Assembly (NCBI GenBank): GCA_039934135.1
Contig: JBDTMT010000002.1
Coordinates: 1-36,264 of the forward strand
Source of the DNA: a bacterium
GTDB lineage: Bacteria; Desulfobacterota; Binatia; HRBIN30; CADEER01
Direction of reading: 5' to 3'
DNA length: 36,264 nucleotides
Shown: positions 16,143-34,787 of the stretch, one piece after another
How the letters are laid out: every line of letters starts with the position of its first letter
Numbering within the stretch: position 1 is the first letter of the stretch
Position numbers and translations under genes: made by a program
The notes under the pieces: model-generated
What the model was told of the DNA's origin: nothing
The model's database searches: none
The model's input: only the letters and a program-made list of their open reading frames with translations

Positions 16143-17855
16143 GTGTCGAATCCCGCCAACCCCCATGCGCTGCTGCTGTACGACCATCCCAGCTCGCCGT
16201 GCGCACGGCGCGTGCGCATCACGCTGCTGGAGAAGGGCCTGGCGTGGGAGACGCAGCTCATCGACCTGTCGCGTCTGGAGCAGCGCAGCGCTGAGTATCT
16301 GCGGCTGAATCCGAACGGCTTCGTGCCGACGCTGGCGCACGGCGAGCGCGTCATCTACGAATCCAACGTCATCACCGAGTATCTCGACGCCGCCTTCCCC
16401 GCCGTGCGCCTCTACCCGCACGATCCCTGGGAGCTGGCGCAGGTGAAGATGTGGCAAGCGGCCGAGCTGGCGATGGCCAAGGACTATCGGCCGCTGATGT
16501 ACCAGCGGCTGATGGGGCCGATGGTGCGCCTGACGCGCACGCTGGAGGAAGCCCTGGCAGCGGCCAGGCGCTCGACCAGTGCCGCGGCGGACCTTGCCTG
16601 GGAAGAGAAGGTCTGGAAGCTGGAGGTGCTGACGCCTGAACAGGAGGAGCAGACCGAGGCGCGCCTGTGGTCGTGGCTCGACAGGCTCGAGCGCCATCTC
16701 GACGGACGCCAGTTCCTCGTCGGCGACCGCTTCACCCAGGCCGAAGTGTCGGTGTTTCCGCGGCTCATGATGTACGCCTTCGTGCGCCTGCCGATCGACG
16801 CGGCGCGCCATCCCCGCGTCACCGCGTGGATGGAGCGGCAGCGCGAACGGCCGTCGTTCGTCGCGACCCAGACCGCCGCCGACACGCAGCTCGCCGGCAT
16901 CACGCGCGGGCCGCTGCTGCCGTGGCTCAGCCGCACGCTGCAGAAACCCGAGCGCCAGCGCAGTCTCGGCGAACGTGCGCGGCTGTGGACGACGCGCCGC
17001 GCCGCCCTACGACAGATGGGCGAGAGCGCGCGCGGCGGCGCCGAGCGGCCGGCGCTGCGCCCGCCCGCCGCGGGCGCGGTGCCGCCAACCGATCAGCCAA
17101 CGCCGCGCCCGACGATAGACCCGGCGCTGCGCACCGCGCCCATCACCCTCTACGATCATCCGCTGTCGCCGCACGGCCGCCGCATCCGCATCCTGCTGCG
17201 CGAAAAGGGCCTCGAGTGGACGACGGTCGAGGTCGACCTGCCGCGCCTGGCGCACAAGGCGCCCGCCTATCTGGCGCTCAACCCCAACGGCGAACTGCCG
17301 ACGCTGCGTCACGGCGAGCGCATCGTCATCGACTCCGGCCTCATCGCCGAGTATCTCGACCGCGTCTACGCCGGCGTACCGCTGTTCCCCGATCATCCCT
17401 TCCTCGCCGCGCAGACACGCATGTGGCTGGCGCTGGAGGCCGGCGCGCACAAGGAGTTCCGGCCGCTGTTCTGGCTCTACGCCGTGCGGCCGTTGCTCAC
17501 CTCGCGCAACGTGCGCGCCGACGAGCTGCCGACCCTGGTGCCCGACGGCGTCGATGCGTCGCACGTCGCCTGGCTGCGCGACACCCTGGCCGGCACGCCG
17601 CGCTTCGACACCAGCGAGCTGCTGGCGCGCGAGCTCATCCACAAGAAGCTCGACGTGCTCGAATACGCCCTGCGCAGCCGTGACTACCTGGTTGGCGACG
17701 CGCTCAGCATGGCGGACGTCGCCTGGTTCACCCGCCTCGATCTGCTGCCGCAGCTCGGCGTCGACACCGACCGCGCCCGCCACCCGAACCTGCGCCGTTG
17801 GTTCGAACGCCTCTCCGCGCGGCCGTCGTTTCAAGAAACCGCAACCCACAGATGA
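16143..17855 (+). CDS. Tandem (two-module) glutathione S-transferase family protein
   Basis: Two complete GST_N plus GST_C modules: LYDHPSSPCARRVR..LNPNGFVPTL..ESNVITEYLD..FLVGDRFTQAE and LYDHPLSPHGRRIR..LNPNGELPTL..DSGLIAEYLD..YLVGDALSMAD; both end in RPSF. Confidence 0.92.
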   Translation: MSNPANPHALLLYDHPSSPCARRVRITLLEKGLAWETQLIDLSRLEQRSAEYLRLNPNGFVPTLAHGERVIYESNVITEYLDAAFPAVRLYPHDPWELAQVKMWQAAELAMAKDYRPLMYQRLMGPMVRLTRTLEEALAAARRSTSAAADLAWEEKVWKLEVLTPEQEEQTEARLWSWLDRLERHLDGRQFLVGDRFTQAEVSVFPRLMMYAFVRLPIDAARHPRVTAWMERQRERPSFVATQTAADTQLAGITRGPLLPWLSRTLQKPERQRSLGERARLWTTRRAALRQMGESARGGAERPALRPPAAGAVPPTDQPTPRPTIDPALRTAPITLYDHPLSPHGRRIRILLREKGLEWTTVEVDLPRLAHKAPAYLALNPNGELPTLRHGERIVIDSGLIAEYLDRVYAGVPLFPDHPFLAAQTRMWLALEAGAHKEFRPLFWLYAVRPLLTSRNVRADELPTLVPDGVDASHVAWLRDTLAGTPRFDTSELLARELIHKKLDVLEYALRSRDYLVGDALSMADVAWFTRLDLLPQLGVDTDRARHPNLRRWFERLSARPSFQETATHR

Positions 17856-26772: not shown

Positions 26773-27666
26773 ATGTCATCGGATGCCGAGTCCGCGGCGC
26801 GCGCGTTGCTGGCGCAGGCCACGCGCCGCACCCTGTCCCTGCCGCAGCGCGGTGTCGAAACCGCGCTGCTGGATTGGGGCGGCCGCGGACCGCTGGCGCT
26901 GCTGCACCACGCCAACGGATTCTGCAAAGGCCTGTGGGCCGAGGTCGCGGATGCGCTGCGCCACGATTGGCATGTCGTGGCAATGGATGCGCGCGGCCAC
27001 GGCGATTCGTCGCATCCCGAGAGTGCGGTGGCGTATGCGTGGGACCAGTTTGCCGAGGATCTGGTCGCCGTCGGCGAAGCCCTGGTGCGCGAACAGGGCG
27101 GCGCGCCGATCGGGCTCGGCATCGGCCACTCGTTCGGCGGCACGTCGATGGTCGGCGGCGCGGCGCGGCGCCCAGCGCTCTTCGAACGCTTGCTGCTGGT
27201 CGATCCGGTGGTACCGCCGCCGCTCGCCGCCGACGTCGACATCATGCAGGTGCCGTATCTGCGCAACCTGGTCGACGGCGCACGGAAGCGCCGCGCCCAC
27301 TGGCCGTCGCGCGCCGCGGCGCGCGCCTGGTGCGGTGAGCGGCGCTTCTTCGACGCCTGGCGCGCCGAGGCGATCGAGCTCTACCTGCTCGACGGCATGC
27401 ACGAACGGGCCGACGGCAGCCTGGAGCTCAAGTGTCCAGGCGCCGTCGAAGCCACCATCTTCGGCGGCAGCCACGCGGTCGATCTGCTCGCCCTCGCCGC
27501 GCGCGTGCCGACATCGACCCGCATCCTGTGGGCCGCCGGCGGCTACTTCCCGCGCGCCATCCACGAATCCCTCGCCGCCGCGATGCACGACGCGCAGCTC
27601 GAAGACGTCGATTGTGGTCATCTGGTGCCGATGGAGCGTCCCGACCTGGTCGTCGCGGCGGTGTGA
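26773..27666 (+). CDS. Alpha/beta fold hydrolase
   Basis: HHANGF, DARGHGDS, GHSFGG nucleophile elbow, LLLVDP, GHLVPMERP. Confidence 0.92.
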   Translation: MSSDAESAARALLAQATRRTLSLPQRGVETALLDWGGRGPLALLHHANGFCKGLWAEVADALRHDWHVVAMDARGHGDSSHPESAVAYAWDQFAEDLVAVGEALVREQGGAPIGLGIGHSFGGTSMVGGAARRPALFERLLLVDPVVPPPLAADVDIMQVPYLRNLVDGARKRRAHWPSRAAARAWCGERRFFDAWRAEAIELYLLDGMHERADGSLELKCPGAVEATIFGGSHAVDLLALAARVPTSTRILWAAGGYFPRAIHESLAAAMHDAQLEDVDCGHLVPMERPDLVVAAV

Positions 27667-27675
27667 GGAGCAGAG

Positions 27676-27778
27676 CAGGTGCCGGTTCCGGATTTCACGG
27701 GTCAGCCGGAATATTTCTACTGACACCTCACACCGGGCACCTGGCACCTGGCACCTGGCACCTGGCACCTGGCACCGG
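27676..27778. repeat. Heptamer tandem array (GGCACCT x5 plus variants) with a short inverted partner
   Basis: Five perfect GGCACCT units at 27736-27770, then GGCACCGG; complementary CAGGTGCCGG at 27676-27685. Confidence 0.88.
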
Positions 27779-27806
27779 ATCCTGCCGTCCCCTATCTTCC
27801 CCGTCC

Positions 27807-29207
27807 ATGCGCAACGACGACCTATGCTGGCTCGGCATTGCCGAGGCGAGTGATCTGTTGGCGAAGGCCGAGCTGTCGCCGGTCGAACTGACCGAGGCGG
27901 TGTGCGAACGCATCGCGCGACTCAACGGTCGGCTGCACGCGTACCTGACCGTGCTGCCCGAGCGAGCCCTCGCCGCGGCGCGAACTGCCGAGCGCGAGCT
28001 CGCCGCCGGACAGCGGCGCGGGCCGCTGCATGGCGTACCGGTTGCCGTGAAAGACCTCTGCGATCTGCGCGGCACGGTGACCAGCTGCGCCTCCACCGTG
28101 CGCGGCGGCGCCGTGGCGCAGCACGACGCCGCGGTGGTGTCGCGGCTCGAAGCCGCCGGGGCGGTGATCGTCGGCAAGACACACCTGACCGAATTCGCCA
28201 TGGCCACCTATCACCCGACGCTGCCGCGACCGGTCAATCCGTGGCGCGCCGACTGCGACACCGGCGGCTCGTCGAGCGGTTCGGGCGTCGCCGTGGCGGC
28301 GGGTCTCGCCGCCGGCGCGATCGGCACCGACACCGGCGGCTCGATCCGCATTCCGTCGTCGTGGTGCGGCGTCACCGGTCTGAAGCCCACCTACGGACGC
28401 GTCAGCCGCGCCGGCGTCTTCCCGCTCGGCCACTCGCTCGATCACGTCGGCCCGATGGCGCGCAGCGCCGCCGATGCGGCGCTGATGCTCGACGCCATCG
28501 CCGGATTCGATGTCGCCGACCCGACGACGCTGCGCGACGCGCCGCGCTCGTGCGCCGCCGAGCTGACTGCTGGAGCGCGCGGCGTGCGTATCGGCTGGGA
28601 CGAACGCTTCGTCTGCGACGGCGCGCCGGCGGCGGTGGCCGATGCGGTGCGCGCCGCGGTCGAGGCGCTCGCCGCTCTCGGCGCTCAGGTGGTCGAGGTG
28701 ACCGTCCCGCCGGTCGACGAGGTGGTGCATGCCTGGCCGGTGCTGTGCGCCGCCGAGGCGTTAGCTGCGCACCGCGAGACCTATCCGAGCCGCGCCGCGG
28801 CCTACGGCCCCGGCTTCCGCTCGTTTCTCGAGTTCGGCGCGTCCGTGTCGGGAGCCGACTACGCGCGCCATCACGAACTGCGGCTCAACTGGGTCGGCCG
28901 CCTGCAGGCGGTGTTCCAGGATGCCGACGTGCTGGCCTGTCCCTCGACCTTCATGACCGCCATCCCCAGCGGCGTCATCGACGCCGACGAAACCTTCTCC
29001 CCCGCCATCGCGCCGTTTCTGCGCTTCACCGCGCCGTTCAACTTCAGCGGCAGTCCAACATTGTCGATGCCGTGCGGCTTCACGCCCGACGGTCTGCCGC
29101 ACAGCCTGCAGCTCGTCGGCCGGCACGGCGCCGAACCGCTGCTGTGCCGCGTCGGCCACGCCTACCAACAGGCGACCGACTGGCACCGGCGCCACCCGCC
29201 GCTTTGA
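27807..29207 (+). CDS. Amidase signature family enzyme
   Basis: GPLHGVPVAVKD, IVGKT, TGGSSSGS, GTDTGGSIRIPSSWCGVTGLKPTYGRVS (Ser-Ser-Lys triad). Confidence 0.95.
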   Translation: MRNDDLCWLGIAEASDLLAKAELSPVELTEAVCERIARLNGRLHAYLTVLPERALAAARTAERELAAGQRRGPLHGVPVAVKDLCDLRGTVTSCASTVRGGAVAQHDAAVVSRLEAAGAVIVGKTHLTEFAMATYHPTLPRPVNPWRADCDTGGSSSGSGVAVAAGLAAGAIGTDTGGSIRIPSSWCGVTGLKPTYGRVSRAGVFPLGHSLDHVGPMARSAADAALMLDAIAGFDVADPTTLRDAPRSCAAELTAGARGVRIGWDERFVCDGAPAAVADAVRAAVEALAALGAQVVEVTVPPVDEVVHAWPVLCAAEALAAHRETYPSRAAAYGPGFRSFLEFGASVSGADYARHHELRLNWVGRLQAVFQDADVLACPSTFMTAIPSGVIDADETFSPAIAPFLRFTAPFNFSGSPTLSMPCGFTPDGLPHSLQLVGRHGAEPLLCRVGHAYQQATDWHRRHPPL

Positions 29208-29279: not shown

Positions 29280-30119
29280 ATGCGCGCGTGGGCGGCGCTG
29301 CTGGTGGCGGCGGTGGCAGTGAGTTCGGCGGCCGGCGCCACCGACACGCGTGAGCTGCGCTTCGTCCGGCAGGGCAAACAAATCGCGGCGTTGTCAGTCG
29401 ACGCGTTGGCCAAAGCGTGCGGCGCGCAGACGGTCGCCATCGACGATCCGTACTACGGCCGGCGCGTGCAATTCCGCGCCTGCCCGCTGGCCGCCGTCAT
29501 TCAACTCGGCTTCGGCCAGCCGGCGACGGCGTTTGCCGGCGACTCGGTGATCTTTCGCGCCCAGGACGGCTACGCCAAGCCGGCCAGCGGCGCGCGCCTC
29601 GCGGAGCCCGGCGGCTGGATCGCCTTCGCCGATGCCGAGCACATGCGCGGCGACGATCCCGGCTGGCAGCCGATCGATCGCAAGCAGGTCGACCCGGGTC
29701 CGTTCTACCTGGTGTGGAGCGGCGCCGAGCAGCACGACGCGACGCTCTATCCGTGGCCGTATCAGTTGGTGACCATCGAGCTGGCGTCGCTCGATACGCT
29801 CTACCCGCACATCGCGCCGAGCGGCACGACGCCCGACTCGCCGGCGCAGGCGGGCTACGCGATCTTCCGCGGCGAGTGCATCGCCTGCCACGCCATCAAC
29901 GGCGAGGGCGGCACCATCGCGCCCGATCTCAACGTACCGCAGAGCATCGTCGAATACCGGCCGGCGGCGCAGATCAAAGCCTACATCCGCAACCCGCTCG
30001 CCTTTCGTTATACAAGCATGCCGGCGCATCCGAACCTCACCGACCGCCAGCTCGACGACTTGATCGCCTACTTCTCGGCCATGAAGGATCGCAAACGCGA
30101 TCCGGGTCGTACGCCGTGA
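29280..30119 (+). CDS. Exported monoheme c-type cytochrome with an N-terminal domain resembling the sulfite-oxidase molybdopterin-binding fold
   Basis: Sec-type signal (MRAWAALLVAAVAVSSAAGA); FRAQDGY and GPFYLVW motifs; C-terminal CIACH with distal Met (SMPAH) and LDDLIAYF. Confidence 0.82.
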   Translation: MRAWAALLVAAVAVSSAAGATDTRELRFVRQGKQIAALSVDALAKACGAQTVAIDDPYYGRRVQFRACPLAAVIQLGFGQPATAFAGDSVIFRAQDGYAKPASGARLAEPGGWIAFADAEHMRGDDPGWQPIDRKQVDPGPFYLVWSGAEQHDATLYPWPYQLVTIELASLDTLYPHIAPSGTTPDSPAQAGYAIFRGECIACHAINGEGGTIAPDLNVPQSIVEYRPAAQIKAYIRNPLAFRYTSMPAHPNLTDRQLDDLIAYFSAMKDRKRDPGRTP

Positions 30120-31267
30120 GCCCGATCAACGGCGCGCCACCGCTGTGCGGCACCCTGCTGCGCGGCGGCCGGCATGAGCTGGAGACGGCGCACGGCGCAT
30201 TTACCGCGCACCGATTCCTCGACCTCACGGCGCGCCAACCGGTGCTGGTGCTGACACGCGGCGAGACGCGCGGCGATGCGCCGCTGCTGGCGCGCGTGCA
30301 CTCCTCGTGTGTGACCAGCGAGAGCTTCGGCGGCGCCGATTGCGACTGTGCCGGACAACTCGACGCGGCGCTGGAGCAGATCGCGCGCGCCGGGCGCGGC
30401 GCCCTCTTCTACCTGCTGCAGGAAGGGCGCGGCGCCGGCTTGGTCGCCAAAGCCCGCGATCGCATGCTGGTGCAAGCCAGCCGCGACCGCGTCACGACCT
30501 TCGACGCCTACGCGCGCATGGGCCTCGACCGCGACTACCGGCGCTACGACGCCGTCGCCTTCGCCTGCGCGGCGCTCGGCATCGCGGCGCCGCTGGCGGT
30601 GCTGAGCAACAATCCGGAAAAGGTCGCCGCCCTGGCCGAGGCGGGCGTCGCCATCGCCGGCGTCGAATGCCTGGAGCGCGCCCCGTCGCCATTCAACCTG
30701 CACTACCTGAGCGCCAAGTCGCGCTCCGGGCATGCGCTGAGCCAGCCCGCCCCGCCAGCCGGGGCCGCGACGTTGCCCGAAATAGTGACGGCGTTCGAGC
30801 CGGCGCCGCTGGAGGGCCTGCCGCGCTTCATCCGCGTCGCCCGCTATCTGCTGCCGGTGCGCGCGCAGCCGCCCGCCGAGGGCGCCTACTGGATGCGGCT
30901 GCACGTCTACGTCGACGGCCTGAGCGGCCGCGAGCACGTCGTCTTCACGGTCGCCGGCAACAGCACCGCGACACCGCTGGTGCACGTCACCGCCGAAACG
31001 CTGCTGCGCCGTTTCCCGTTGCGCGACCGTGCCGCGGCGTGGCCGGAGGCGGTCGAGCAGCTGGCAGCTCGCGGCGCCGGCTGCGCGCTGTTCTTCCTGC
31101 ACGACGATCCGGCCCTGGCGCGCCATGCCAGCCCGGCGGCGGCGCTGGCCGGCGATCCCGATCTGGCGCGCCTGATCGCGCACCACCTGCCGGGCCGCGC
31201 CGAGTTGCTCGCCGCCGACGCGTCGCTGGCCGCAGCGCTGTCCGCCGCCGGCGTGGTCGTGTCGTGA
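30116..31267 (+). CDS. Atypical GTP cyclohydrolase II (RibA-like) with a degenerate second GCH II-like domain
   Basis: RVHSSCVTSESFGGADCDC (Zn ligands Cx10CxC), QEGRGAGL..K, DYRRY, SNNPEK, NLHYLSAKSRSGHAL. GTGA overlaps at both ends (30116-30119, 31264-31267). Confidence 0.88.
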   Translation: MSPINGAPPLCGTLLRGGRHELETAHGAFTAHRFLDLTARQPVLVLTRGETRGDAPLLARVHSSCVTSESFGGADCDCAGQLDAALEQIARAGRGALFYLLQEGRGAGLVAKARDRMLVQASRDRVTTFDAYARMGLDRDYRRYDAVAFACAALGIAAPLAVLSNNPEKVAALAEAGVAIAGVECLERAPSPFNLHYLSAKSRSGHALSQPAPPAGAATLPEIVTAFEPAPLEGLPRFIRVARYLLPVRAQPPAEGAYWMRLHVYVDGLSGREHVVFTVAGNSTATPLVHVTAETLLRRFPLRDRAAAWPEAVEQLAARGAGCALFFLHDDPALARHASPAAALAGDPDLARLIAHHLPGRAELLAADASLAAALSAAGVVVS

Positions 31268-33216
31268 CGCCGCCTCTCCCCTCAGCACCACAGGGGAGAC
31301 GTCACGACGCGAACGACGGAACCGCCAGCCCGGCGCGGCGCAGGCGCGCCGCGGCCGCGCGCCAGCTGCTGCGCCGGCGCATGGAATCGGCACCGCAGCT
31401 GATCGCGCGCGTCGCGCGCCTGATCCTGCCGACCCTGCCGCTGCTGCCGGGCGCGGCGCGCAGCGTCGTCACCACCGGCGTCGGCAGCTCGGCGGCGCAC
31501 GCCGCGCTGCTGGCGCATCTGCTCGCCGACCAGCTGGGTATCGCGGCGCGCGCCGTGCCGGCCGGGGCGTTCATCGCGCCGCTGGCCGACAGCGCGCGCG
31601 ACGTGCTGGTGGTCTTCTCGCAGGGGCTGTCGCCGAACGCGCGTCTGGCGCTGCACGACCCACAGCGCTGGTTGGCGGTTATCCTGGTTACCGCCGTAGC
31701 ACCGCGGCCGCGCGACACCGCACGGCGCGAGGCGCTGGCGGCGCTGCGCCGCGCCGGCGGCGTGGTCATGCACCTGCCCGGCGGCGCCGAGCGCGGCTTG
31801 CTGCTGCGCGTCGCCGGTCCGCTCGCCGCCAGCGCCGCGTGCTTTCGCCTCGCCGACGCCTTGGCCACCACCCTGCGCGGCGCGGCAGCGACCGACGCCG
31901 CGCTGCGGCTCGATGCGGCACGCATCGCCAGCGCCATGCGCGCCGCCGCGACGCGCGGAGCCGCCTTCGCGCGTCGTCGCGATCGCGCCGATCGTCTGCC
32001 GCAGGCGCTGTTGGCCAGCGGCGGCTACGGCGCCATCGCCGGCAACCTGGCGCTGAAGCTGAGCGAGGCGCTGCTGGTGCCGCCGCCGCCGGTCCACGAC
32101 CTGATCGACTTCGCGCACGGCCCGTTCCAGCACCTGTTCGCGGCGCCGGCGACGCTGTTCGCGCTGACGCGCCGCAACGCGCCGGGCGAGGACGCGCTGT
32201 GGGCGCGTCTGACGGCGATGCTCGATGCACCGCGCCATCGCGTCGTGCGCCTGCCGTCGACGTTGCCCGGCGCGCAAGCGCTGTTCGAACACGAGAGCTG
32301 GCTCAACGCCTTCGTGCTCGAAGTGATCGAAGCCGCCGAGCGCGATCCCGCCGACTGGCCCGGGCGCGGCAACGACGCACCGCTCTACGACGTCGCGGCG
32401 CCGTTCGCGCCGCGCCGCGTGGCGCCGCGACACACGCGCCCGACTGACAGCCTCGCCGCGCTCACCTGGCCCGAGCTGGCGCGCGCCCGCGCCGCCGGCT
32501 GCGACACCGCCGTCGTGCCGCTCGGCGCCACCGAGCAGCACGGCCCGCACCTGCCCTTCGCCACCGACACCTGGATCGCCGAGGCACTGGCGGCGCGCTT
32601 CTGCACCCGCGTGCCGCAGGCCGTAGCGGTGCCGGCGCTGCCGTTCGGCTGCTCCGCCGAGCACGGCGAGTTCGCCGGCACGCTCAGCCTCGGCTGGGAC
32701 ACGCTGCGCGCCCTGCTCGCCGATCTGTGCGCCGCGCTGGCGCGCGGCGGCTTCGCGCGCATCGTCGTGTTCTCGGCGCACGGCGGCAACGATGCGCTGC
32801 TCGCCGCGTCCGCGTCGCAGCTGTCGCGCGCGGCGCGGCCGGCGCGGCTGATCATCTGTCGCGACATCGCCGTCCTCGCCGCCGGCTGGCACCGCGCCAG
32901 CGCCGCCTTCGGTGTAACGCCCGCCGCCGCCGGCTACCATGCCGGGGAATTCGAAACCTCGCTCATCGCCGGACTGCGCCCCGAGGCGTTGCGCCGCAAC
33001 GCCTTGCGTGCCGGTCTCAGCCGCGTGCGCGGCGACGCACAGCGCCTCTTCTACCCGAGCCTGCGGCGCCGCGCGCCGAGCGGCGTGGTCGGCGATCCGC
33101 GCGGCGCCACGGCCAGCCGCGCCGCCGCCTATCTCGACGCCTGGGTCGAGGCGCTGGTGGCGCAATATCGCGGCGCGATGAAGCGCCAGACGACGAAGGG
33201 GATCCACAGGCCGTAG
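31264..33216 (+). CDS. Fusion of a double SIS (GlmS/FrlB-like sugar-phosphate isomerase) region with a creatininase-family amidohydrolase
   Basis: SIS motifs: VVTTGVGSS, VVFSQGLS, NLALKLSE, DFAHGP. Creatininase motifs from ~32461: LTWPEL, PLGATEQHGPHLPFATD, SAEH..FAGTLSL, SAHGGN, HAGEFETS, SGVVGDP..AT. Start is 31264 (GTG, coupled) or 31381 (ATG). Confidence 0.85.
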   Translation: MTPPLPSAPQGRRHDANDGTASPARRRRAAAARQLLRRRMESAPQLIARVARLILPTLPLLPGAARSVVTTGVGSSAAHAALLAHLLADQLGIAARAVPAGAFIAPLADSARDVLVVFSQGLSPNARLALHDPQRWLAVILVTAVAPRPRDTARREALAALRRAGGVVMHLPGGAERGLLLRVAGPLAASAACFRLADALATTLRGAAATDAALRLDAARIASAMRAAATRGAAFARRRDRADRLPQALLASGGYGAIAGNLALKLSEALLVPPPPVHDLIDFAHGPFQHLFAAPATLFALTRRNAPGEDALWARLTAMLDAPRHRVVRLPSTLPGAQALFEHESWLNAFVLEVIEAAERDPADWPGRGNDAPLYDVAAPFAPRRVAPRHTRPTDSLAALTWPELARARAAGCDTAVVPLGATEQHGPHLPFATDTWIAEALAARFCTRVPQAVAVPALPFGCSAEHGEFAGTLSLGWDTLRALLADLCAALARGGFARIVVFSAHGGNDALLAASASQLSRAARPARLIICRDIAVLAAGWHRASAAFGVTPAAAGYHAGEFETSLIAGLRPEALRRNALRAGLSRVRGDAQRLFYPSLRRRAPSGVVGDPRGATASRAAAYLDAWVEALVAQYRGAMKRQTTKGIHRP

Positions 33217-33875
33217 TAGAGTTGATTCGGCAGCACGCGCAGCAGCCAGCCGACGTCGAGCCCGGCGAGCTGGCTGCACACGTCGGACGTCGCCCACAGC
33301 CCGTAGTAGACCGCGACATACAGCAGCACGGCGCGTAGGTAGGCACGCAACGCCGGCGGCGCGACGTGCGTCGCGTTGCCGCGCAAAGCCAGCGCCACGG
33401 CGCAGAAGGTCACCTCGTAGATCAGCCAGATGCCGCTCGCGCTCCAGCCGGCATTGAGACGCGTCACCAGGGCGTTGGTCGGATAGGCGATCAGCGGCAC
33501 CAGCAGGGTCCAGCCGGCGGCGCGCGGCAGCGCGCTGCGCCAACTCCGCCCCGCCGCGATCGACAGCAGTCCGAACATCAGCAGATAGACGCGGAAGTCG
33601 CCGAGCAGCACGAACAGCAGCGTCACCGCCGTGCTGCCGCCGTCGCCAAAGCCGAGGACGCGCAAGAGCGGCCCGGTGGCCAGCGGATCGACCAGCGTCT
33701 CGCAGGCGAAGACCAGACCGTACGCATCGACGAACGATCGCGCCGCCGGCAGCACCCCGGCGCCGCGCGGCGCGCCGCGCACGCCGCGCCAGAGCAGATA
33801 AAGCGCCGGCATTACCAGCGGCGCCCAGGCACTCTGCGCATCCGACGCGTACAGCTCGTGCCAGGTAGCAAACAT
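33129..33875 (-). CDS. Hypothetical polytopic membrane protein
   Basis: About 7 hydrophobic segments; coding-like codon usage; 3' end overlaps the convergent fusion gene by 88 bp. Confidence 0.75.
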   Translation of the reverse strand: MFATWHELYASDAQSAWAPLVMPALYLLWRGVRGAPRGAGVLPAARSFVDAYGLVFACETLVDPLATGPLLRVLGFGDGGSTAVTLLFVLLGDFRVYLLMFGLLSIAAGRSWRSALPRAAGWTLLVPLIAYPTNALVTRLNAGWSASGIWLIYEVTFCAVALALRGNATHVAPPALRAYLRAVLLYVAVYYGLWATSDVCSQLAGLDVGWLLRVLPNQLYYGLWIPFVVWRFIAPRYCATSASTQASR

Positions 33876-33915
33876 GGATGGCCCGCCTTTCACGACGGAC
33901 GGGGCGCCGCAACCA

Positions 33916-34020: not shown

Positions 34021-34049
34021 CGGCAATCGAATGAGACTTGCCCCTTCAG

Positions 34050-34787
34050 ATGTTGAAGCCCGTACGCAAGCAATCCGTGACCGATGCCGTGTTCGAGCAG
34101 CTGCGCGATCAGATCGTCAGCGGCGAGCTGACGCCCGGGTCGCCCATGCCGGCCGAACGCGTGTTGTGCGAAGCGCTTGGCGTCAATCGCGGCGCGGTGC
34201 GCGAGGCGCTGCAGCGCCTGCAGCAGTCGCGGCTGGTATCGGTGCGCCACGGCGGCACGTCGCAAGTGCTCGACTATCGCGCCTCGGCCGGGCTCGATCT
34301 GCTGGCCGATCTGATCGTCTCGCCGAGCGGCCGATTCGACGCGCGCGTGGTCAATTCGATCATCGAGATGCGCTCGGCGCTGGCGCCCGACATCGCGCGG
34401 CGCGCCGCCGAGCGTGGCGGAACCGACGACGCCGCGGCACTCGCCGCGGTCACCGCGCGCATGGCGGCCCGCGCCGGCGATCTGCCGGCGTTGCAGGAGC
34501 TGGCGGTCGAGTTCTGGTCGCTGCTCGTCGACGCCGCCGACAACCTGGCCTATCGCCTCGCCTACAACTCGATGCGCGCCACGTACGATCAGTGTCGCGC
34601 GCTGCTGACGCAGGTGTTGGCCGACGAGATCGGCGACGTCGCGCGCTACCGCGCCATCGCCGCCGCCGTCGAGGCGCGCGACGCCGGCACGGCCGCACAG
34701 CTGGCGCGCGAGTTGGTCGAACGCGGCGAACGCGCCGTCAAGCACGCCCTGGCGCAACTCGCGCCGCATGAGGAGGTCGCCCGATGA
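34050..34787 (+). CDS. GntR family transcriptional regulator, FadR subfamily
   Basis: VFEQLRDQIVSGEL.PGS.MPAERVLCEALGVNRGAVREALQRL wHTH plus a helical FCD-like C-domain. Confidence 0.93.
   Translation: MLKPVRKQSVTDAVFEQLRDQIVSGELTPGSPMPAERVLCEALGVNRGAVREALQRLQQSRLVSVRHGGTSQVLDYRASAGLDLLADLIVSPSGRFDARVVNSIIEMRSALAPDIARRAAERGGTDDAAALAAVTARMAARAGDLPALQELAVEFWSLLVDAADNLAYRLAYNSMRATYDQCRALLTQVLADEIGDVARYRAIAAAVEARDAGTAAQLARELVERGERAVKHALAQLAPHEEVAR

Follow-up and report, generated by a model that had tools for sequence, protein, structure and literature searches.

What becomes of a GTP cyclohydrolase II (GCH II) when the tyrosine equivalent to Tyr105 of Escherichia coli RibA is replaced? A change from Tyr to Met reportedly switches the enzyme to a form that stops at the formamide, a finding attributed to Spoonamore and Bandarian in 2008, and SCO6655, of the Streptomyces type discussed below, is likewise said to make the formamide. 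Our literature searches found no open text on SCO6655 or on the role of Tyr105. Here we describe a GCH II paralogue, which we call GCH2*, in which the loop that should carry this tyrosine has been replaced. It is encoded in the window, by which we mean the whole GC-rich stretch of 36,264 nucleotides that was analysed, from contig JBDTMT010000002.1 of a Binatia bacterium (assembly GCA_039934135.1). The gene is one of four in a module whose most likely product is a pterin, to be used by a periplasmic PruR-like cytochrome c.

Several described systems bear on such a module. BrbF, a creatininase-family protein of Sinorhizobium meliloti and Brucella, deformylates 2-amino-5-formylamino-6-ribosylamino-pyrimidinone 5'-phosphate (AFRPP); the same report cites archaeal ArfB as a creatininase-fold AFRPP formamidase and describes the ring-opening partner of BrbF (‘BrbG’) as still unidentified (PMC9478397). 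GTP cyclohydrolase I carries the chemistry further, proceeding by ring opening, deformylation, opening of the ribosyl ring with Amadori rearrangement and, finally, ring closure, while Chlamydia achieves dihydroneopterin monophosphate from GTP with RibA and the Amadori isomerase TrpF (PMC4161248). As to the recipients of pterins, PruR-type domains bind neopterin and monapterin. In PruR a PW motif stands in for the Mo-ligating Cys, and a Tyr stacks on the pterin (PMC11194511).

The replaced loop and the clade that shares it

How closely does GCH2* resemble a conventional GCH II? The protein contains 383 residues (30116..31267, plus strand), and its most likely start codon, GTG at 30116, shares the tetranucleotide GTGA with the TGA stop of the gene before it. 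The catalytic domain occupies approximately residues 1–205. PF00925 (GTP_cyclohydro2) matches residues 19–181 with 131.2 bits (cut-off 23.3) over profile positions 6–162 of 165; in a phmmer search E. coli RibA (2bz0, E 1.7e-28) is the first match among solved structures. The NCBIfam models of RibA score under their cut-offs (NF001591, 135.6 versus 148; TIGR00505, 116.7 versus 205.85). In common with E. coli RibA (2bz0/2bz1), GCH2* has the PF00925 fold, QEGRG, NNP (N165 and N166), three cysteines (C65, C76 and C78, equivalent by phmmer to C54, C65 and C67) and the equivalent of Arg128, namely R142, the first Arg of DYRRY. In E. coli RibA the cysteine triad binds zinc, and Arg128 is the guanylyl acceptor. 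An earlier note on this DNA had read the zinc cysteines, the catalytic Arg and NNP as intact, and so they proved; all are invariant in an alignment of 24 members of the GCH2* family, as are K112, D115, R116 and M117.

What stands in place of Tyr105? The K-I-R-A-Y-A loop gives way to KARDRM (30449..30466, plus strand), where AAA GCC CGC GAT CGC ATG encodes K112, A113, R114, D115, R116 and M117. In the gap-free phmmer alignment with 2bz0 (qegrgaglvakardrmlvq over qegrniglLnkirayalqd), E. coli Tyr105 pairs with Arg116. Met117 follows, one residue off Tyr105 in ungapped alignments; a shift of one residue would put it at the Tyr105 position, where it would match KLRAMALQ of Streptomyces. The earlier note had given this position as Arg, or as Met with such a shift, and had also reported that ECLTGD is changed to SCVTSE; the alignment with E. 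coli RibA confirms both. GCH2* further contains TTFDAY in place of TVEAN and a three-residue insertion (RVT) after the loop. Within the loop itself there is no Tyr. The nearest invariant Tyr specific to the family is Y132, in TTF[DE]AY; the 24-sequence alignment adds Y144 to the invariant tyrosines particular to GCH2*.

The C-terminal region (approximately residues 209–383; 30740..31264, plus strand) likewise sets GCH2* apart from RibA. Alone, it gave no Pfam match. Its residues 49–122 match the second domain of relatives from Verrucomicrobiota (group B, below), which is a second PF00925 stretch, weak in one case, devoid of the zinc cysteines. It follows that GCH2* consists of a catalytic GCH II domain joined to a degenerate, truncated partial repeat.

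Is the altered loop an accident of one sequence? Of 8000 candidates scored in a family search, 810 proteins reached E ≤ 0.001, although not all of these need belong to the clade. The best 120 relatives are 49–87% identical to GCH2* and full-length (about 360–490 residues); most belong to uncultured Binatia, Myxococcota and ‘Deltaproteobacteria’. A genome scan, with one genome per species, produced 276 relatives; all locus counts given here refer to the best 80 loci. These fall into group A, 48 loci with QEGRG[AS]G from Binatia, Myxococcota and similar bacteria, the cultured Pyxidicoccus fallax and Archangium minus included, and group B, 32 loci with QEGRGVG from Verrucomicrobiota, mostly Opitutaceae. 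In their best tblastn segment, group-A loci are 45–75% identical to GCH2*, and those of Verrucomicrobiota 36–54%. All 80 loci contain K-[AVS]-[RL]-D-R-M-[LIMV]-V-Q-[AS]-S, and all 80 contain HS[SA]C[VILM][TS][SG]E. A motif common to 80/80 loci means that the loss of the Tyr loop is not due to chance.

In a maximum-likelihood tree of 32 catalytic domains the 21 clade members stand apart from ten canonical sequences and one Streptomyces Met-type sequence, with support of 100/100. E. coli RibA, whose motif differs from the extraction pattern, is not in this tree, and the Met-type sequence sits on a long branch. K-x-x-A-Y is present in E. coli RibA and in all ten canonical GCH II of the tree, among them the RibBA of the genome that encodes GCH2*. 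No clade member was found on plasmids; all 221 records fell below 60% identity. On the evidence of sequence, we conclude that GCH2* is a distinct, phylum-spanning clade of GCH II that has lost the Tyr loop. Targeted literature searches, with supplements outside their scope, found no published description of the module to which it belongs.

A creatininase-fold partner fused to a double-SIS domain

GTGA overlaps of start and stop codons join the upstream gene, GCH2* and the gene downstream. The latter (31264..33216, plus strand) starts either at GTG 31264, overlapping the stop of GCH2*, or at ATG 31381, and encodes a fusion of two domains. The C-terminal domain of about 250 residues (32452–33213, plus strand) is a creatininase-fold amidohydrolase. 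PF02633 (Creatininase) matches it with E 1.5e-61 over profile positions 2–236 of 238, and the metal and catalytic motifs TEQHGPHLP..TD, HGGN and HAGEFETS are intact and align with those of 3no4 and 3lub. Its best NCBIfam match is MftE, at 145.7, under the cut-off of 172.

The N-terminal 357 residues (31381–32451, plus strand) form a double-SIS domain resembling the isomerase domain of GlmS. In sequence the signal is weak: PF01380 matches at E 0.016 and, when a family profile is used, 3fxa at E 3.7e-4. An AlphaFold2 (AF2) model built with 19 homologues, with a predicted local distance difference test (pLDDT) score of 88.8, was compared with known structures by Foldseek. The top matches are GlmS isomerase domains (E 6e-12 to 1e-10, TM about 0.65–0.69), and next come NagB-II and other double-SIS phosphosugar isomerases or deaminases. 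With hhalign the SIS family and the genome's own GlmS align over the first SIS subdomain alone (E 0.056). The family-invariant K226-x-x-E229...H246-G-P has the same spacing as KLKE...KHGP in that GlmS, by comparison of motifs only; these we assume to be the catalytic residues of GlmS.

How constant is this arrangement? A census of the 80 loci was made by phmmer (E ≤ 1e-5) against all their stop-to-stop open reading frames (ORFs). In group A the PruR-like cytochrome lies upstream of GCH2* in 41 of 48 loci, the SIS domain downstream in 43 (62 of the 80 loci overall), the creatininase domain alongside in 41 (41/80 overall) and the membrane protein that completes the module in 37. Of the five group-A loci without SIS, four have at most 60 nt of downstream sequence, and the fifth, P. 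fallax, truly lacks it, encoding a creatininase domain alone that is not fused to SIS. All seven loci without creatininase have less than 1400 nt downstream. Two of the loci without the membrane protein have full flanks. A contig labelled Klebsiella pneumoniae (L039) also carries a module of the Binatia/Myxococcota type, at 50% identity; its label is probably wrong.

Might these genes be neighbours by coincidence, with GCH2* a decaying or regulatory duplicate among unrelated genes? The degenerate, truncated C-terminal half is what one would expect of decay, and no shared RNA element came to light: no Rfam family, riboswitches included, reached threshold in the window or in six related loci. 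Set against this are the order of the genes, kept in 41–43 of the 48 group-A loci, the overlapping start and stop codons, and catalytic residues that stay invariant among sequences as little as 45–75% (group A) and 36–54% (Verrucomicrobiota) identical. We consider coincidence very improbable.

Creatininase-family genes also accompany GCH II enzymes that have lost the tyrosine in another way. Two plasmid-borne Streptomyces enzymes carry a Met precisely where the Tyr would be (KLQAMQLQ, S. globisporus; KLRAMALQ, S. fungicidicus), and each is adjoined, divergently, by a creatininase-family gene, identified in one case by PF02633 (4.7e-59) and in the other by the annotation of the record (clusters L125:2143-4591 and L128:1264-6401). 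One of the two clusters adds RibD_C; the other adds a PTPS-like 6-carboxytetrahydropterin synthase, a glycosyltransferase and a methyltransferase, and looks like a pterin-type secondary-metabolite cluster. Near 18 other GCH II loci outside the GCH2* clade no creatininase match was found (0/18), in flanks of only 1.5–4 kb. The Streptomyces Met-type enzymes, to which SCO6655 belongs, thus have in common with GCH2* the missing Tyr and a creatininase-family gene next to both. They are otherwise canonical (ECLTGD, TVEAN, Met at the fourth position after Lys), are placed by the tree with the canonical sequences and, unlike GCH2*, have neither the SIS fusion nor the PruR-like cytochrome.

The earlier note had proposed that a reaction halted at the formamide explains the adjoining creatininase domain. 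The pairing itself, conserved in 41 of 48 group-A loci and recurring at the two Streptomyces loci, speaks for this proposal; the remaining neighbours point beyond it, to a pterin as the product. That GCH2* may stop at the formamide, which the creatininase domain would then deformylate, is partly supported, by comparison and gene context, and we regard these two steps, ring opening by the one and deformylation by the other, as somewhat the better bet. Such an arrangement would be that of ArfA/ArfB and BrbF, in which a ring opener that stops at AFRPP is followed by a separate creatininase-fold formamidase (PMC9478397). It differs from the former in that ArfA (PF05165) is unrelated to GCH II, and from the latter in that BrbF stands alone, without the double-SIS isomerase to which the hydrolase of the module is joined.

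The exported cytochrome and a possible route to a pterin

What might the product of the module be used for? The upstream gene (29280..30119, plus strand) encodes a protein of 279 residues with a signal-peptide-like N-terminus and two domains. Pfam Cytochrom_C matches residues 190–266, with CxxCH at C200/C203/H204 and Met247. For the preceding domain of some 150 residues (approximately residues 21–169; 29340–29786, plus strand) there was no Pfam match. In an AF2 model of the protein (pLDDT 77.9) this domain has as its top Foldseek matches the structures of PruR, namely 7kom, 7rkb (with neopterin) and 7kou, and VIA-align superimposes it on PruR with Z 14.7–15.4 and a root-mean-square deviation of 2.5–2.6 Å over 129–131 of 134–147 residues. 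A hidden Markov model (HMM) of the domain matched a single PDB chain, again PruR (7rkb), at E 0.28, which is not significant alone; an HMM of the whole protein yielded cytochrome c chains only, among the 60 matches listed. Against 7rkb, DPYY of the domain aligns with TPWY and DGY with DFY. Judged from the model, we conclude that the domain is PruR-like and putatively binds a pterin, lacking the Mo-ligating Cys and keeping the stacking Tyr.

The resemblance to PruR thus comprises the truncated fold of sulfite oxidase (SUOX), at Z of about 15, PY at the position of PW, the motif of the stacking Tyr, and export. The two differ in that the upstream protein is fused to cytochrome c and is just 15–20% identical to PruR. 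They differ also in context: PruR acts in PruA/PruR/DcpA signalling, whereas DcpA (GGDEF-EAL) is absent among the neighbours here and the protein is encoded with putative pterin-making enzymes of its own.

Facing these three genes is a fourth (33129..33893, minus strand), which encodes a hydrophobic, putative membrane protein of 254 residues. A strict hydropathy cut gives three segments and inspection by eye suggests more. There was no match in Pfam or NCBIfam, and the Atlas returned only clusters of hypothetical proteins, mostly from Myxococcota. Its 3' end overlaps that of the convergent fusion gene by 88 nt (33129–33216).

If the four proteins act together, how might they do so? In a first step GCH2* would release pyrophosphate from GTP and open the imidazole ring, keeping the N-formyl group, so that the product would be AFRPP. 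The creatininase-fold domain of the translationally coupled fusion protein would next take off the formyl group, the reaction known from ArfB and BrbF. The GlmS-like double-SIS domain would then open the ribosyl ring and carry out an Amadori rearrangement, and closure of the 5-amino group onto the 2'-keto group would yield a pterin of the 7,8-dihydroneopterin-3'-phosphate type. This pterin would serve the exported PruR-like cytochrome c, with the facing membrane protein perhaps as its transporter. What the analysis itself establishes is the altered loop with its invariance, the folds of the domains, and the order and coupling of the genes together with their conservation; the four steps are inferred. 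It is because of the double-SIS domain, the PruR-like cytochrome and the membrane protein that we favour a pterin over a simple bypass of the riboflavin type. As the best explanation of the locus we propose a split route of the GTP cyclohydrolase I kind, from GTP to a dihydroneopterin-phosphate-type pterin destined for the exported cytochrome c, and give it an even chance. That the module performs the full pterin route from GTP is put forward more tentatively.

The overall chemistry proposed, to dihydroneopterin monophosphate, is that of GTP cyclohydrolase I and of the Chlamydia pair of RibA and TrpF (PMC4161248). The means would be different, for in Chlamydia a canonical GCH II works with the TIM-barrel TrpF, and here a separate deformylase domain would be joined to a GlmS-like SIS domain. 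Unlike the Chlamydia bypass, moreover, the module occurs in hosts that keep FolE or FolE2.

Just upstream of the module, at 26773–29207, lie genes for an alpha/beta hydrolase and an amidase-signature enzyme, both in the window and in its closest relatives (L007, L009, L010). Within 7 kb on the plus strand the census found an amidase in 3/48 group-A and 7/32 group-B loci. Many group-B loci have a xanthine/uracil-family permease upstream, as a gene cluster in 17 of them (one representative matches PF00860 at 5.5e-47).

Could the module then make or degrade some compound derived from GTP other than a pterin? Its SIS domain might act as a deglycase like FrlB, releasing the free triaminopyrimidinone base together with ribulose 5-phosphate, or the genes might serve the salvage or catabolism of purines. 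The permeases and amidase-signature enzymes of group B suit this alternative, as do the amidase and hydrolase upstream in the window and nearest relatives, and SIS enzymes do include deaminases and deglycases, NagB-II being among the Foldseek matches. What argues for a pterin instead is the coupled PruR-like domain, which is of the kind that binds neopterin and monapterin. The PTPS-like pterin enzyme of one Streptomyces Met-type cluster points the same way, and each of the three catalytic domains has its counterpart in one of the three chemical stages through which GTP cyclohydrolase I proceeds (PMC4161248). A non-pterin product seems to us rather improbable.

Beyond the membrane-protein gene, the window encodes a GntR regulator (34038–34787, plus strand) and a membrane enzyme of the fatty-acid-hydroxylase family (PF04116; 34784–35473, plus strand). 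An ORF cluster is found near the module in 12 related loci, 11 of which have it just past the membrane-protein gene; the one member tested (L039:11946-12920, minus strand) is a lipid desaturase of the CarF/PEDS1 type (PF10520, 2e-52). The only pterin-dependent lipid enzyme known to us is alkylglycerol monooxygenase, and since this enzyme belongs to the PF04116 superfamily, a link between pterin and lipid may merit attention. Elsewhere in the window (16143–17855) there is a gene for a 570-residue protein that consists of a tandem pair of complete glutathione S-transferase units.

The Verrucomicrobiota and the case for a complete GCH II

Is GCH2* an addition to a conventional GCH II or a substitute for it? 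In the genome that contains the window, which is 83.8% complete, there are three matches to PF00925, namely a canonical RibBA, a RibB fused to a Cys-less domain, and GCH2*. The canonical RibBA has KLRAYALQD and sits in the rib operon, between ribD- and ribH-like genes. GCH2* is therefore an extra copy here. A canonical copy, scoring 206–244 bits, is also present in 5/5 other group-A genomes. A RibB whose fused GCH II-like domain has lost both the zinc cysteines and QEGRG occurs at four loci, one in this genome (L002, contig C51) and three others (L089, L091 and L092).

The observations that weigh against the proposed route are gathered here, those from group B first. In this group the PruR-like cytochrome, the creatininase domain and the membrane protein each score 0/32. 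SIS follows GCH2* in 19/32 loci; in three of the five group-B genomes checked that have no adjacent SIS gene, no SIS homologue was found anywhere. In three cultured isolates of Verrucomicrobiota (Opitutaceae/Coraliomargaritaceae) GCH2* is the sole GCH II homologue with zinc cysteines, the only other PF00925 match being RibB with a Cys-less domain. These isolates have RibH and RibD_C, and GCH III was looked for in them and not found. On sequence grounds GCH2* probably feeds riboflavin synthesis in all three. Two further points concern the module at large. Because the hosts have FolE or FolE2, they do not need a second pterin route for folate, and the molybdopterin (Moco) domains of SUOX nearly tie with PruR in the structural comparison of the cytochrome's N-terminal domain (VIA-align, Z 13–14).

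Two substitutions were considered and ruled out. That GCH2* replaces a missing FolE is contradicted by the FolE of this genome, in which, at 83.8% completeness, no FolE2 was found, and by the five Verrucomicrobiota genomes, with FolE2 in 5/5 and FolE in 0/5. That SIS replaces a missing RibD reductase is contradicted by RibD_C, present in 3/3 genomes.

Since no other GCH II of the three isolates retains a zinc site, and GCH2* has no creatininase nearby, it might there be a complete GCH II. The corresponding general explanation is that GCH2* is fully competent and gives 2,5-diamino-6-ribosylamino-pyrimidinone 5'-phosphate, another residue having taken over from Tyr105 and the creatininase domain acting elsewhere. 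The invariant Y132, for example, could stand in for Tyr105, judging from the alignment, and Y144 is also invariant. The retention of RibB alongside RibH and RibD_C in the isolates, the lack of GCH III, and the absence of a nearby creatininase from the whole of group B all fit this explanation, as does the absence of the SIS partner from one of the isolates and from two other genomes. It is harder to reconcile with a loop replacement that is invariant in 80/80 loci, with a creatininase that appears downstream wherever a group-A contig extends far enough, and with the recurrence of the pairing in the independent Streptomyces Met-type enzymes. A deformylase might also be found among the Verrucomicrobiota themselves: creatininase-family genes lie elsewhere in the genome, two to five in each of five genomes checked, so the two-step route may operate there too, and the amidase homologue near GCH2* in 7/32 loci could be the enzyme that deformylates. 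Taking both sides together, we think a fully competent GCH2* unlikely.

In four of the five Verrucomicrobiota genomes checked there are proteins of 550–730 residues with two tandem creatininase-fold matches (L098–L101, in G002–G005). At the one such locus inspected (L099) no riboflavin gene or other link to riboflavin was found.

We return to the reading in which GCH2* and its partners lead from GTP to a pterin. Taken to its full extent, it would mean that three separate domains reinvent GTP cyclohydrolase I, that a new membrane protein feeds a periplasmic pterin-haem cytochrome, and that the same clade also supplies, in Verrucomicrobiota, the ‘BrbG’-type enzyme with which a two-step bacterial route to riboflavin begins. 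So extended, the proposal is possible though doubtful.

What would follow if it were correct? A single change in the loop of GCH II would repeatedly have created the need for a separate deformylase, in the GCH2* clade and, independently, in Streptomyces. Bacteria would possess a modular way, so far undescribed, of making pterins from GTP with neither FolE nor FolE2. Pterins would gain a dedicated periplasmic partner for redox or sensing in the PruR-like domain with its cytochrome c, a pterin-haem redox protein of an undescribed kind. For BrbF, whose ring-opening partner is still missing (PMC9478397), the clade would offer a candidate type. And some Verrucomicrobiota would make their riboflavin by way of an enzyme of the GCH2* type.

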